A DNA stretch of 64,000 nt, taken from assembly GCF_003334785.1 (NCBI RefSeq), contig NZ_QOWV01000006.1; one strand, 5' to 3'. The DNA comes from Escherichia coli. Its GTDB lineage: Bacteria > Pseudomonadota > Gammaproteobacteria > Enterobacterales > Enterobacteriaceae. Shown piece by piece: positions 1 to 6,000 of the stretch; the first letter of the stretch is position 1, and each line of letters opens with the position of its first letter. The position numbers were made by a program.

Positions 1-3000
1 TTGGCATCGCCGTTGTCAGCGATATCCGCGATATTGCCGCAAGGGACAATGACCGCATCGACCGTCAGCGAAGGTGCACCGGCAAAGGTAGCGGCTATAG
101 GCAACACCGTACCGTCATCCGCAGTCACTTCACCCATTCGGGAGTAGAGCAGTTTGGCATGAACGCCTTTGGCCTTCAGCGCCTTGAGAATGGCCAGAAG
201 GTCTGCCGATCTCACTTCATCATTAAGTAAAATCGCTACCACGCGACCTTTCACATCACCGTCAGGAATGGCGTACAAACTTAAGGATGGATCCTTTTTC
301 AGACCGTTGACGTCCGGAGGTGGGGTGATATTCAGCTGGTCGTCAGTCAGTTCGATACCGAGATTTTTCGCCACCGCCTGGGCCAGAGTGAGATCAATAT
401 GCGCCAGCTGGTCAACAACGCGCTCACGAATATACGGACGAACGACTTTGCTTAACTCAAAACTGAAACCATCGACAATATGGCGCTGCTCAAATGGCGT
501 CTGACTTAGCCAGAACAGACGCGGATGGGAATAATATTCGCCAAACGATGGGCTGCGCTCGCGAACTTTATTGCCTTCCACGCGCTCCTGGTATGATTCA
601 AAACCGCCGCGTTTCGGCCCCGGCGGTGTTTCGCGCGGCCAGTTATCGTTAATCGAGTTCGGTTCGTAATTCGCCGGGTTAGTGTCGATCCCCATGCGAT
701 GCATGCCGTCACGCTGGAAATTATGGTAAGGGCAGGTCGGACGGTTAATCGGAATCTCATGGAAATTCGGCCCACCAAGACGACTGATTTGTGTATCGGT
801 ATAGGAGAACAAACGTCCCTGCAACAGCGGATCGTTGGTGAAGTCCAGTCCCGGCACGATATGCCCAGGATGGAAAGCCGCCTGTTCGTTTTCAGCAAAG
901 AAGTTATCCGGGTTGCGATTGAGCACCATTTTGCCGACACGCTGAACGGGCACCAGTTCTTCCGGGATAAGTTTGGTTGGATCGAGAAGATCGAAGTCGA
1001 ACTTGAATTCATCTTCTTCAGGAATCAACTGGAAGCCCAGTTCGTATTCCGGAAAATCGCCTGCTTCAATGGCTTCCCACAACTCGCGGCGGTGGAAGTC
1101 CGGGTCACGTCCGGTGAGTTTTTGTGCTTCATCCCAAACGAGTGAGGCTTTACCTGCCAGTGGTTTCCAGTGGAAACGTACAAACGTTGCCTTCCCTTCG
1201 GCATTAATCAGGCGGAAGGTGTGAATACCGAAGCCTTCCATGGTGCGGTAACTGCGGGGGATGCCGCGATCCGACATCGCCCACATCACGTTGTGCAGAG
1301 TTTCAGGTTGCAGAGAAACATAATCCCAGAAAGTATCGTGGGCACTTTGCCCTTGTGGAATTGCCCAGTGCGGTTCTGGTTTTACCGCATGAACAAAATC
1401 GGGGAATTTATGCGCATCCTGGATAAAGAAGATTGGCGTGTTATTGCCAACGAGGTCAAAAATACCCTCTTCGGTATAGAACTTGGTGGCAAAGCCACGG
1501 ATATCACGCACGGTATCAGCAGAGCCAGCACCACCCTGAACGGTAGAGAAACGTACAAATACTGGGGTGATTTTGTTCGGATCTGAGAGGAAATCCGCTT
1601 TGGTAATATCGCTTAAGCTTTTATATGGCTGGAAATAACCGTGAGCGGCTGATCCGCGTGCATGAACAATACGTTCCGGAATGCGCTCATGGTCAAAGTG
1701 GGTGATTTTCTCGCGCAGAATAAAATCTTCCAGCAGCGTTGGACCACGGCTACCGGCACGCAGTGAGTTTTGATCGTCGGCGATGCGCACGCCCTGATTA
1801 GTGGTCAGCGCATAATTTTCACTGCCTTTGCGTACGTCTTCCAGAGAATTAAGTTTTTCGTTACGCGTATCAGGGGCTTTCAGGCTCCCTGGGGCGGTAG
1901 GTTGTGCACCTGGCGGTGTTGGTTCAGCCGCTGGACGATGAGAGCCGTCCTCAGGTGCCAGTGAGTCCATCCCCGGTTTCGCTTCGCTGGAATCGTGTAG
2001 TGGTGACTGGTGCTGATGTGGGTTCTTTTCGTTATGTTGCGACATTGAACTCGTCTCCTTAATTTATTACTGAAAGGGCCGCTGTTTTGGTCAAAAAACT
2101 CTCTAACTATAGACCACCAGCCAGATCCCGCTTCGGAGACTATTCTGGAAACGGTGTTATGAAATACACGCAAAGCGGGACGTACAGGGGCTAAATCGGC
2201 TAAACTACAGTTTTTCTGATTTTTAATATGCGTTTAGTGAAGCCAGTAATGAAGAAACCGCTCCGCCAGCAAAACCGCCAGATTATTAGCTATGTCCCAC
2301 GCACGGAACCCGCGCCGCCAGAACATGCGATAAAGATGGATTCGTTTCGTGATGTCTGGATGCTGCGTGGCAAATATGTTGCGTTTGTACTGATGGGAGA
2401 GTCATTTCTGCGCTCACCGGCGTTTACTGTGCCTGAATCTGCCCAACGTTGGGCAAATCAGATCCGCCAGGAAGGGGAAGTGACTGAGTAAGGATTACAT
2501 ACCTCCCGGTTTTGCCGGGAGTTACATGACCTGAAATTCTGTATTTCGTTGCTACATTCATTCAAACCACCTGTAACAAAAAGCTGCCTTTGACGATCTA
2601 TTGCTATAAATAAGTGATCTTTTTTCTTTAATTGTTTATTTATTTTAAAATGGTTAAGTTTTGCTAATCATGATGAGCTATTTTTGATAGTTCATCCTGT
2701 GGCGTCGCTCTTAAACTTATATTGTAAATGACTTAGATTTAAATGAGATAATAATTTTGTTAACAATATGAGGCGGGAGATGTTTTCTACAAACTTAATA
2801 CAGAGTAATTATGGTGATTTAAATATTAAAAGCCTGGCTTTCGACTCTTTTAAAGAAAGGCTGCAGTCTACTATGACAGCACTCACTTTCTTTATATCAA
2901 CGGGTCAATGTGACTGCGATGAAATAGCAGAATCAAACTTTAATTATATGATTGCCTATATGTCTAACATTAACTATGATGCCTCAAAGCCAGGAGCGCC

Positions 3001-6000
3001 AGCACTTAGTTTTGATACATATCTGCAGGACAATGTTAAATATAGAGTAATAATTAATAATCTTTATGGTAGTGAAATTCGGATAAGAGGTATAAATAAA
3101 GATTTTATTGGAATGGATGTCACTTCTGTATTTCGCCCAGAAAAAATGACCAATTTGATCAGTATAAAAAACAGGTTGGTTATTCACTATTTAAGGACTA
3201 TATACTATGAACAAAATTATATACATCCTGTCGGGAGCATTTTTGCTGCGATTCAAAAAAATGAGAGTCTCCTAAAGTTTCCTTCGATAATATCAATGCT
3301 TAATATCAATCTTCTTTTTAATCCACTAAATCTTCCGGGAATGGGAAGTGGTGTGCTTGAAGATATTATGAGTATTCCAGATAGTTCACTTAGAAAACGT
3401 CTCGGGTATGAGGTTTTAAGCTTCTCGCTACAGGCACATTCATTGAGCCAGGAATGTATTGATAAGTTGGACATTTTTTTCGCTGACGATCTGTTTAAAT
3501 ATGAGTCAGTATGCATCGCCGCGATGGAACATTTAAAAAGTAAGGCAACGGCCCCTATACAAAACGGACCGTTGCCAGCATAAGAATTAATGGTGTGCCA
3601 GTTCGGCGTCGTCTTCGCTATCCAGAATGGCTTTATCGGTTTGCTTCAGCCACTGGCTGGTCAGCGTGCCAGCTGTCATCGAGCCACTAACGTTTAACGC
3701 CGTACGGCCCATGTCGATAAGCGGTTCAACGGAGATTAACAGCGCCACCAGGGTTACTGGCAGGCCCATCGCAGGCAGTACAATCAGTGCGGCGAAAGTT
3801 GCACCACCACCGACACCGGCAACGCCTGCGGAACTAACGGTAACAATACCGACCAGCGTCGCAATCCACATCGGGTCCAGCGGGTTAATGCCAACCGTAG
3901 GCGCAACCATCACCGCCAGCATTGCCGGATACAAACCGGCGCAGCCGTTCTGACCAATGGTTGCACCGAAAGAGGCGGCGAAACTGGCGATGGATTCAGG
4001 AACGCCCAGACGACGCGTTTGTGCTTCCACATTCAGTGGGATAGACGCAGCACTGGAACGGCTGGTAAAGGCAAACGTCAGCACAGGCCATACCTTACGG
4101 AAGTACTTCAGCGGACTCACGCCATTAATGCCCAGCAGAATGCCATGCACTGCAAACATAATCAGCAGACCGAGGTAGGACGCGACAACGAAACTTCCCA
4201 GTTTGATGATGTCTTGCAAGTTAGAACCTGCAACCACTTTGGTCATTAGAGCCAGAACGCCGTAAGGGGTCAACTGCATGACCAGGCGAACCAGTTTCAT
4301 CACCCAGCTTTGTAGGGTATCGATAGCGGCTAAGACGCGTTCACCTTTCGGCGCATCATCCTTCAGCAGTTTCAATGCAGCTACGCCGAGGAATGCGGCA
4401 AAAATTACCACGCTGATAATTGACGTCGGATTGGCTCCGGTAAGATCGGCAAACGGGTTTTTCGGGATAAAGGACAAGACCAGCTGCGGAACGCTCAGAT
4501 CAGAGACTTTACCAACATAGTTACTTTCAATGGCGTTCAGACGTGCAGTTTCTGCACCACCCTGAACCAGACCTTCAGCCGTCAAACCAAACAGGTTGGT
4601 GACCAGCACACCGACCAGCGCCGCAATCAGCGTGGTAAACAAAAGCGTACCGATGGTCAGAAAACTGATTTTGCCTAACTGAGATGCGTTATGCAGACGG
4701 GCAACCGCGCTCAGAATAGAGGCGAAGACTAACGGCATAACGATCATTTGCAGCAGTTGAACATAGCCGTTACCAACGATGTTAAACCACTGTACAGAAT
4801 CTTTAAGTACCTGGCTGTCAGAACCATAAATGGTATGCAGGGCAAGGCCAAAAACCACACCCATCACCAGACCCACCAGCACTTTTTTCGCCAGACTCCA
4901 CTGTTTATGGCGGGTCTGAGCCAGCGCAAACAGCAGTACAACGAACACCACGATGTTCGCAATTAATGGAAAGTTCATCCCCGTTCTCCTGATCTTATTA
5001 TTTCTATCACTGCGTAGCAGTCATAGTGTTGGCGCAAGATTAACAGAACTGTGAGCTGGCTCTTATATTCAAATGGAATTGCTTATTCCAGAAAGGTGAT
5101 TTTTGCCTTTTTAGTATTCAACCTGATGCTTAATAAGCCGATGAAACTGGATCTGCAAGGTATTGATCATTTGCGATGACCAACGAACAGCGCTGTTCTC
5201 GGGTAATGAATGGGGCATCCATACCGACCAGACAAATAATGCCATGCAGATAAAACGTTCCAGTTGGTTGCCCTTTTGGGGAACCAGGATAGGCAAGCGG
5301 AAACGCCAGCGGCATGGCCAGAGCAGGGGAACACCGGCGGGTGTCAGCATATCGGCAAGTATGTGGCTCAAATAACCCAGCACCATTCCTTGTAGCGCAT
5401 CAGCCGGAATGAACCAGCCTTCCGGAACCTTAAGGTAAAAGGTTGCCAGCAGCGCAAATACCGCCAGCAGACTGTGGGTAAAACCACGATGCCCAAAAGC
5501 GCGGGCGATCGGTTTTGATATCCATTTTAATCGCTGCCCAAGAAACGACTTTGGGTGATCGATGTCCGGTAACAAACACGTCAGGATTGCGGAAGGGACA
5601 ATATGCCACCAGTCACCCTGTGCCAGCACGGGCGTCAGCTCGGCATTTTTGGCAAATACCGCACAAGCAATAGAAAAGAGAAGGTGACCTTCCGCCGTCA
5701 TGATAAAACTCACTAAACTGTCGATACGTACAGTATAGGATTTTTATACAGTGCACGGAAGTGGTGACGGTGTAACTCTTTCTCTTAAATTGACGATTAA
5801 TCCGTCAGTTGAATGCAATTTCAGATAAAGAACCAGGGGCAGCGAGATCACTGCCCCTGGTCATTAACCGAGAAGGTCTTTTGCGGTGAGTTCTGTCAGC
5901 GATGAGAGTTTGACGTCTGCTAATACAAAACGTGGATCATTTTGCGCTTCTGGCGCAGGAACGACGATGGAACGCATGCGGGCTGCTTTAGAGGCGATCA

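Follow-up and report, generated by a model that had tools for sequence, protein, structure and literature searches.

The ydjO locus of Escherichia coli occupies the beginning of a 64,000-nucleotide stretch of DNA (NCBI RefSeq assembly GCF_003334785.1, contig NZ_QOWV01000006.1), which was analysed as a whole and is referred to here as the window. At this locus, katE (minus strand, 1–2045), cedA (plus strand, 2228–2491), ydjO (plus strand, 2780–3583) and tcyP, also named ydjN (minus strand, 3587–4978), follow one another, and the same annotation is obtained by megablast of 2200–3700 against 5426 complete E. coli genomes. The window corresponds to the reverse strand of K-12 MG1655 (NC_000913.3) with 6 differences in 13.4 kb, so that it stems from a variant or very near relative of MG1655 and is not identical with the reference; the single-base differences lie at window positions 5906, 6886, 11710, 12200, 12440 and 12891. 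An earlier note, made from the sequence alone, had described an AT-rich island reaching from the cedA stop through ydjO. Its coordinates are exact, 2492 being the first base past the cedA stop codon (TAA, 2489–2491) and 3583 the end of the ydjO stop codon, and the T/A-rich run that it quoted is located at approximately 2621–2654. The main parts of the locus are as follows.

2228–2491, plus strand: cedA, the left flank, conserved across Enterobacteriaceae (comparison; annotation by the Prokaryotic Genome Annotation Pipeline, PGAP).
2474–3586, no strand assigned: the ydjO islet, the inserted or replaced segment (alignment with the empty site of strain 83972 and with outgroup spacers; profile of G+C content, GC).
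2780–3583, plus strand: the ydjO coding sequence, 267 aa, with an alternative upstream ATG at 2768 (open reading frame, ORF; ratio of nonsynonymous to synonymous substitution rates, dN/dS).
3587–4978, minus strand: tcyP (ydjN), which forms the right flank and converges on cedA and ydjO (protein identity of 89–99% across Enterobacteriaceae).

In base composition, the segment 2492–3583 has a GC of 34.4% (31.2% in the cedA–ydjO spacer and 35.1% in the ydjO coding sequence), as against 51.5% in cedA, 52.4% in tcyP, 52.2% in the part of katE present and 49.1% in the whole 64-kb window. Sliding windows of 1092 bp across the 64 kb have a mean GC of 49.1% with a standard deviation of 4.3%, which places the segment at z = -3.4. 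The lowest of these sliding windows (34.2% GC) begins at 2511, inside the segment, making it the GC low point of the 64 kb, and the 0.13% of sliding windows that are equally low all overlap it. A 300-bp profile runs at 0.29–0.36 over 2501–3500 and at 0.47–0.59 on either side. Codon usage follows the same pattern: the GC at third codon positions of ydjO, 0.32, is the minimum among 43 ORFs with 150 codons or more (mean 0.526, standard deviation 0.071), and the fit of ydjO to local codon usage, 0.566 against 0.70 ± 0.055, is among the poorest. Both the sliding-window and the codon-usage analyses set the segment apart from its neighbours, in agreement with the AT-rich island originally described.

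The syntenic locus was fetched via CedA from 80 species-representative genomes, and katE, cedA, tcyP and any YdjO-like sequence were mapped in each. In about 70 non-Escherichia species of Enterobacteriaceae, from genera that include Salmonella, Citrobacter, Enterobacter, Klebsiella, Raoultella, Kluyvera, Kosakonia, Lelliottia and Atlantibacter, cedA and tcyP are convergent neighbours separated by a spacer of 50–150 bp; the spacer measures 51–53 bp in E. whittamii and three further (cryptic) Escherichia lineages. E. coli itself exists in both forms. A contiguous empty cedA/tcyP junction is present in 1124 of the 5426 complete genomes (~21%), including Nissle 1917, the avian pathogenic strain APEC IMT5155 and 83972 (B2), and the 5' part of ydjO is carried by 4295 (~79%). 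Filled and empty classes together account for 5419 of the 5426 genomes, essentially a two-state polymorphism. The empty site of the B2 strain 83972 can be aligned position by position with that of E. whittamii and other Escherichia lineages, and its layout is common to Citrobacter and Salmonella: a CedA end reading ..QENE.. is followed by an A-run, a single G+C hairpin, a T-run and the tcyP stop codon. Because the empty E. coli site is homologous to the outgroup spacers, including their terminator hairpin, and bears no deletion scar, we conclude that the empty site is ancestral and that 1.1 kb was inserted. These ancestral short spacers, found from other genera down to E. coli itself, support the foreign origin that the earlier note had read from base composition.

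Compared with the empty site, homology ends at approximately cedA codon 83 on the left and restarts at the tcyP stop codon on the right. The last five to six codons of cedA depend on the haplotype, reading ..QEGEVTE in filled sites versus ..QENEVEE in empty sites and outgroups; at the counterpart of window 2474–2491, CedA ends in ..QEGEVAE in both E. albertii and Escherichia sp. MOD1-EC7003. The difference in the CedA C-terminus between filled and empty sites argues that the insertion rewrote the end of the neighbouring protein.

The predicted YdjO protein has a mass of 30.2 kDa, a pI of 5.6 and no transmembrane segment. Consistent with the initial impression that it has no recognisable motif, YdjO has no match in Pfam even at E ≤10, none in NCBIfam and no significant match among PHROG profiles (best E 0.37), and PADLOC returns no family for K-12 YdjO, for a divergent allele or for the E. 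albertii fragment described below. The PDB is likewise blank, its best sequence match, L-selectin (E 0.54), being judged a chance match. A word-indexed search of 5.8 billion clusters found E. coli sequences only, the most divergent full-length one being P0006 at 76% identity, and phmmer, run exhaustively over 1.84 billion cluster representatives (15 billion proteins), found only E. coli fragments and an artefact. The artefact, P0034 (299 aa, 26% identity, E 1.5e-36), was considered as a distant YdjO homologue and rejected, since its contig (L005; Logan SRR33321306 contig 56313) is the E. coli cedA–ydjO–tcyP region in which A and G have traded places along the whole length (A reads as G at 536 positions and G as A at 390, versus 42 A and 45 G that are kept). 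YahL and YjfZ (DUF2686) were rejected as YdjO paralogues (BLASTP E 0.22 and 2.1; hhalign probability 0.1).

The sole true relative is found in E. albertii. In the type strain, an ORF at 4406–4801 of contig L014 begins 163 bp past cedA and is cut off where the contig stops; over 114 aa it shares 39% identity with YdjO (E 2.5e-17), and it lies in DNA of 32% GC. A 257-aa E. albertii protein in UniProt, A0ABD7EEI9, has 33% identity to YdjO (Foldseek E 8e-11). The E. albertii homologue keeps the reading frame and the motifs FISTG, FNYMIA and KM..L....N.LVI. As a stepping-stone query of the large protein collection, the E. albertii fragment recovered one 79-aa fragment only. Members of the ydjO family are known in E. 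coli/Shigella and E. albertii only. AlphaFold2, run with a 9-sequence alignment, gave a model with a predicted local distance difference test score (pLDDT) of 50.2 and a predicted template-modelling score (pTM) of 0.37, too poor for fold comparison; it shows a helical hairpin at the N-terminus, a sheet of five strands and a helical region at the C-terminus. When this low-confidence model was searched with Foldseek against AFDB50, the family matches were YdjO of E. coli/Shigella and of E. albertii, and all others had E ≥0.047 and template-modelling (TM) scores <0.3, none of them significant. Rather than a housekeeping enzyme, YdjO is presumably an accessory protein that is of use under certain conditions.

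Substitution patterns are those of a protein-coding gene. Between six intact ydjO alleles, dN/dS is 0.13–0.28 (Nei–Gojobori), versus 0.01–0.06 for tcyP; between K-12 and the rare allele L006, the N-terminal 170 codons have dS 0.79 and dN 0.18 (dN/dS 0.22). The corresponding polymorphism ratio, pN/pS, is <1 in every 40-codon window, with its minimum of 0.04–0.18 in the C-terminal third, and the probability that a 267-codon ORF arises by chance at 35% GC is ~3e-9. We conclude that ydjO is a real gene under moderate purifying selection, arguing that the protein does something.

Its alleles are unusually diverse. Among seven haplotypes, nucleotide diversity peaks at 2700–3300, which covers the 5' two-thirds of ydjO and the proximal promoter, with values of 0.08–0.13 versus 0.005–0.035 in the flanks. 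Across the 5426 genomes, identity of this 600-bp segment to K-12 is ≥99% in 1737, 95–99% in 1192 and 90–95% in 1366. L006 is 69–84% identical to K-12 at 2700–3300, with flanks of 94–100%, and NCTC9064 has K-12-like flanks but 13% divergence at 3000–3150; such mosaic patches point to recombination among old alleles. The diversity peak may stem from imports under relaxed constraint, from alleles kept by balancing selection or from a raised mutation rate. Deep allelic diversity is the sole feature of the locus that might hide something of more interest.

Many ydjO alleles are broken, and three sequence features are associated with their decay.

3255–3261, plus strand: an A7 homopolymer, of which an A8 variant causes a frameshift (YdjO truncated at ~161–165 aa; L092, L008).
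2591–2602, plus strand: left copy of a direct repeat, TGACGATCT(A/G)TT, repeat family D5 (left endpoint of the 893-bp MOD1-EC7003 deletion).
3484–3495, plus strand: right copy of the direct repeat, TGACGATCTGTT (right endpoint of the same deletion).

The cluster of truncated 165-aa proteins, P0011, has 2273 member sequences, versus 8291 in the main full-length cluster. PGAP labels ydjO of NCTC9064 as 'frameshifted', and a Q261stop allele is carried by a B-strain derivative. Insertion sequences (IS) disrupt the gene as well: IS1 insertions, IS10 at codon 175 in a heat-evolved strain, and an IS-interrupted copy in O104:H4. In Escherichia sp. MOD1-EC7003 (L012), an 893-bp microhomology deletion between the TGACGATCT repeats has kept the last 32 ydjO codons. 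Judging from these alleles, ydjO is dispensable and repeatedly inactivated. A larger loss is seen in E. coli ES4 (L002, NZ_CM184348.1; locus 1890–3986), where an IS1-flanked rearrangement has lost katE, cedA and ydjO, and tcyP remains beside IS1 and gene fragments.

The concept of the xenogeneic-silencing target reportedly goes back to Navarre and to Oshima in 2006. In the ydjO islet, the relevant DNA is the spacer upstream of the gene.

2492–2779, plus strand: the cedA–ydjO spacer, 31% GC, a published promoter island and H-NS-bound region (GC; PMC3661553, PMC3946193, PMC5493296).
2728–2755, plus strand: a sigma-70-type promoter-like site upstream of ydjO, ATGACT-16-AATAAT (consensus scan; exact match to the listing in PMC3946193).

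The ydjO(-)/cedA(-) spacer is one of 78 promoter islands in Table 1 of Panyukov and Ozoline 2013 (PMC3661553), where it is recorded as H-NS-bound in the chromatin immunoprecipitation (ChIP) datasets of Kahramanoglou (MG1655) and Oshima (W3110), and ydjO is foreign by the Nakamura and the Lawrence–Ochman criteria. It is also marked 'HNS' from genomic SELEX (systematic evolution of ligands by exponential enrichment) in Table 2 of PMC3946193, which gives ATGACT-16-AATAAT as the RpoD genomic-SELEX 'constitutive promoter' of ydjO, and an RpoS holoenzyme SELEX peak falls at the same spacer (PMC5493296). The two ChIP datasets and the genomic SELEX bear out H-NS binding of the spacer, as expected from the earlier note, which had called the segment typical of H-NS-silenced DNA; from this binding we infer that ydjO is silenced by H-NS. 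In the extraintestinal pathogenic E. coli strain O78-9 in serum, ydjO, ydjN/tcyP and other CysB-regulon genes are down at least 2-fold (PMC4145685 Table 1), and the co-variation of ydjO with tcyP may reflect antisense read-through from tcyP rather than regulation of ydjO.

Taken together, the locus is best explained as a foreign, AT-rich, H-NS-bound insertion that carries a real orphan gene, ydjO, and segregates in E. coli, an explanation to which we assign a probability of roughly 0.8. A ~1.1-kb AT-rich segment would have been inserted between the convergent cedA and tcyP in an Escherichia lineage, in place of a short ancestral spacer that held a bidirectional terminator. An AT-rich regulatory region, ydjO encoding a soluble 30-kDa protein, and a new tcyP terminator would have come with the segment or evolved in it later. 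Because the segment lies ~15 points below the GC of the chromosome, it is bound by H-NS, and as a result the ydjO promoter, a site of RNA polymerase binding in vitro, is presumably largely silent in laboratory conditions. The islet now segregates, with ~79% of complete genomes filled and ~21% in the ancestral empty state, and its unusually old or diverse alleles would be shuffled by homologous recombination via the conserved flanks.

Several observations weigh against this explanation. On the side of silencing, the Grainger ChIP dataset has no score for the site (code 'K', not 'A'; PMC3661553), none of the consulted papers that mention ydjO describes higher transcription of the gene on loss of hns (and stpA), and the islet shows no enrichment of the 10-bp H-NS nucleation motif TCGATAAATT. 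Promoter-like sites number 5 versus 4.3 ± 2.0 in shuffled sequences by a simple -35/-10 consensus scan, the published call having been made with PlatProm. On the side of insertion, the islet lacks integrase and transposase genes, tRNAs and terminal repeats, whether direct or inverted, ydjO being its sole long ORF. Neither a donor nor a vector was found, the plasmid, phage and IMG/VR collections holding no YdjO copy; tblastn against plasmids gave three matches only, all of them chromosome-sized records misfiled as plasmids. Finally, the divergent E. albertii homologue occupies the same site while cryptic clades nearer to E. coli are empty, a pattern that a single recent insertion could not have produced. 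Either the insertion is old and the polymorphism has persisted ever since, or the segment has passed from one lineage to another.

A different reading gives YdjO a part in genetic conflict, for instance in phage defence, as a toxin or as a secreted effector, under balancing or frequency-dependent selection. It would account for the presence/absence polymorphism, for the deep mosaic diversity at 2700–3300, where K-12 and L006 reach a dS of 0.79 between flanks that are 94–100% identical, and for an E. albertii homologue that is merely 33–39% identical; a RelE/ParE-like toxin–antitoxin pair, recognised by eye, sits at the same junction in Siccibacter, and rank 13 of the Foldseek matches is an E. 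coli 'type III effector', though not at a significant level (E 0.15, TM 0.29). However, PADLOC and PHROG give no match, pN/pS exceeds 1 in no window, ydjO is a single gene without a partner, and the null alleles in many lineages fit relaxed constraint equally well; the structural model, moreover, is too poor for fold comparison. We therefore consider a role in genetic conflict unlikely. The same doubt applies to its fullest version, in which YdjO would be a new fold in an Escherichia-restricted family, its polymorphism and Salmonella-scale allele divergence would be kept by balancing selection in genetic conflict, and H-NS would hold the gene off until a trigger lifted the silencing, possibly via a conserved 20-nt palindrome in the spacer.

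It is less likely still that ydjO is an annotation artefact, an ORF that is present by chance or in decay within AT-rich junk DNA under H-NS. YdjO does lack any homologue of known function, its AlphaFold2 model has a pLDDT of only 50.2, and frameshifts, IS insertions and losses are frequent, with the gene absent from 21% of strains. Yet dN/dS stays at 0.13–0.28 in all allele pairs, even at a dS of ~0.8, constraint is strongest in the C-terminal third (pN/pS 0.04–0.18), an ORF of this length is expected by chance at only ~3e-9, and E. albertii has retained the frame and the FISTG and FNYMIA motifs at 33–39% identity.

A local origin of the low GC, by biased mutation at this site or by the birth of a gene from non-coding DNA and without lateral transfer, would agree with the lack of a donor among 15 billion proteins and with a family confined to Escherichia, but we regard it as very improbable. 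The ancestral spacer is only ~50 nt, arguing that ~1.1 kb came from elsewhere; the E. albertii and E. coli versions share an upstream block and the coding frame, indicating that the gene was already formed; and E. coli genomes, with a median of one place per genome, hold no second copy from which to duplicate. Least probable, and largely refuted, is an islet ancestral to Enterobacteriaceae or Escherichia that B2 strains and some relatives deleted: ydjO deletions do occur, as in MOD1-EC7003 (893 bp between TGACGATCT repeats), and a homologue sits at the same site in the outlying species E. albertii, but the empty sites hold a homologous spacer, a terminator hairpin and the ancestral CedA end QENE.. 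without scars, ydjO is at the junction in 0 of ~70 non-Escherichia species, and the one deletion seen, with its 200-bp remnant, looks unlike the empty sites.

The explanation by a foreign, H-NS-bound insertion has close precedents. Like the H-NS-bound promoter islands of PMC3661553, the cedA–ydjO spacer is rich in A+T, binds H-NS and, in vitro, RNA polymerase, and lies beside a gene scored as foreign; it differs from them in no essential kind, although our simple consensus scan shows no excess of promoter sites. That an AT-rich, foreign, H-NS-bound segment with an orphan gene lies here is already known from the literature, and the locus leaves the current understanding of xenogeneic silencing unchanged. 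What the present analysis adds is the empty site as the ancestral state, the division of E. coli into 79% filled and 21% empty genomes, the homologue in E. albertii, purifying selection alongside deep allelic diversity, and the exposure of one false homologue. As a compact single-gene AT-rich insertion in which an empty site, H-NS binding data, decay routes and a diversity peak are seen together, the ydjO locus is convenient for studying the persistence of silenced orphan genes.

YdjO also has counterparts among E. coli/Shigella 'conserved signature proteins' (PMC11057252). YahL and YjfZ, which are confined to E. coli and Shigella, are like YdjO uncharacterised and of similar size (264–271 aa), and their genes are also lower in GC (yahL 38.8%, yjfZ 42.4%). 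Unlike them, YdjO is absent from 21% of E. coli and has a homologue in E. albertii, and no sequence relationship to them is detectable. The E. albertii homologue resembles YdjO in its site downstream of cedA, its 32% GC DNA and the shared 20-nt block and motifs, and differs from it in sequence (33–39% identical), in length (257 vs 267 aa) and in lacking the 140-nt AT-rich upstream stretch of E. coli. The gene ydjO, one of the uncharacterised genes of E. coli K-12, is in use as an 'E. coli/Shigella-specific' quantitative PCR marker in tests of water quality (PMC11057252). Given the ~21% of genomes without ydjO and the E. albertii homologue, YdjO is not found in all E. coli and is not strictly confined to that species, which departs from how that study presents it. 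Both points bear on use of the marker: the gene is missing from B2 strains such as Nissle 1917 and 83972, and a distant homologue exists in E. albertii.

Three hairpins are found in the islet.

2503–2521, plus strand: a G+C-rich hairpin just past cedA, CTCCCGGT-TTT-GCCGGGAG (RNA fold -14.4 kcal/mol, z -3.9).
2672–2696, plus strand: a conserved palindrome or hairpin, GATGAGCTATTTTTGATAGTTCATC, unique in the window (RNA fold -11 kcal/mol, z -4.2, on the plus strand).
3545–3577, minus strand: the tcyP intrinsic terminator hairpin, with a U-rich tail on the minus strand (terminator scan; fold -22.4 kcal/mol, z -5.0).

The hairpin at 2503–2521 has no U-tail and takes the place of the ancestral bidirectional terminator; the hairpin past cedA is a different one in E. 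albertii and in empty sites. The tcyP terminator lies within the last 13 codons of ydjO, arguing that the islet provided its neighbour's terminator after replacing the ancestral bidirectional one. Within the palindrome, K-12, the 76%-identical allele (L006, 4894–4913) and E. albertii (L014, 4306–4328) share the same 20-nt core, ATGAGCTATTTTTGATAGTT (2673–2692), and the DNA around it is just 50–70% identical. The ATGAGCTATTTTTGATAGTT hairpin has 9–11 bp and is stronger on the plus strand, and the conserved block may be an operator or a hairpin element of the 5' untranslated region. A perfect TATAAT lies 3 nt upstream of the block in E. albertii. An Rfam scan gave one sub-threshold match, to a nematode small nucleolar RNA, which was dismissed as chance.

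Other cargo occupies the cedA/tcyP junction in other genera (L043 4241–5738; L084 4229–5139; L088 4241–6164), identified by eye from translations: ORFs resembling an IS3-family element in Enterobacter wuhouensis, the small pair resembling a RelE/ParE-type toxin and its antitoxin in Siccibacter colletis, and a LysR-like regulator with a 281-aa gene in Kosakonia sacchari. Within the window, two further stretches are low in GC (36–40%). One, at 10500–12450, is the region of the arpB pseudogene and yniD; the other, at 60080–61700, comprises the 5' end of ydhY and the ydhY–fumD (ydhZ) spacer, which is likewise among the promoter islands of PMC3661553.

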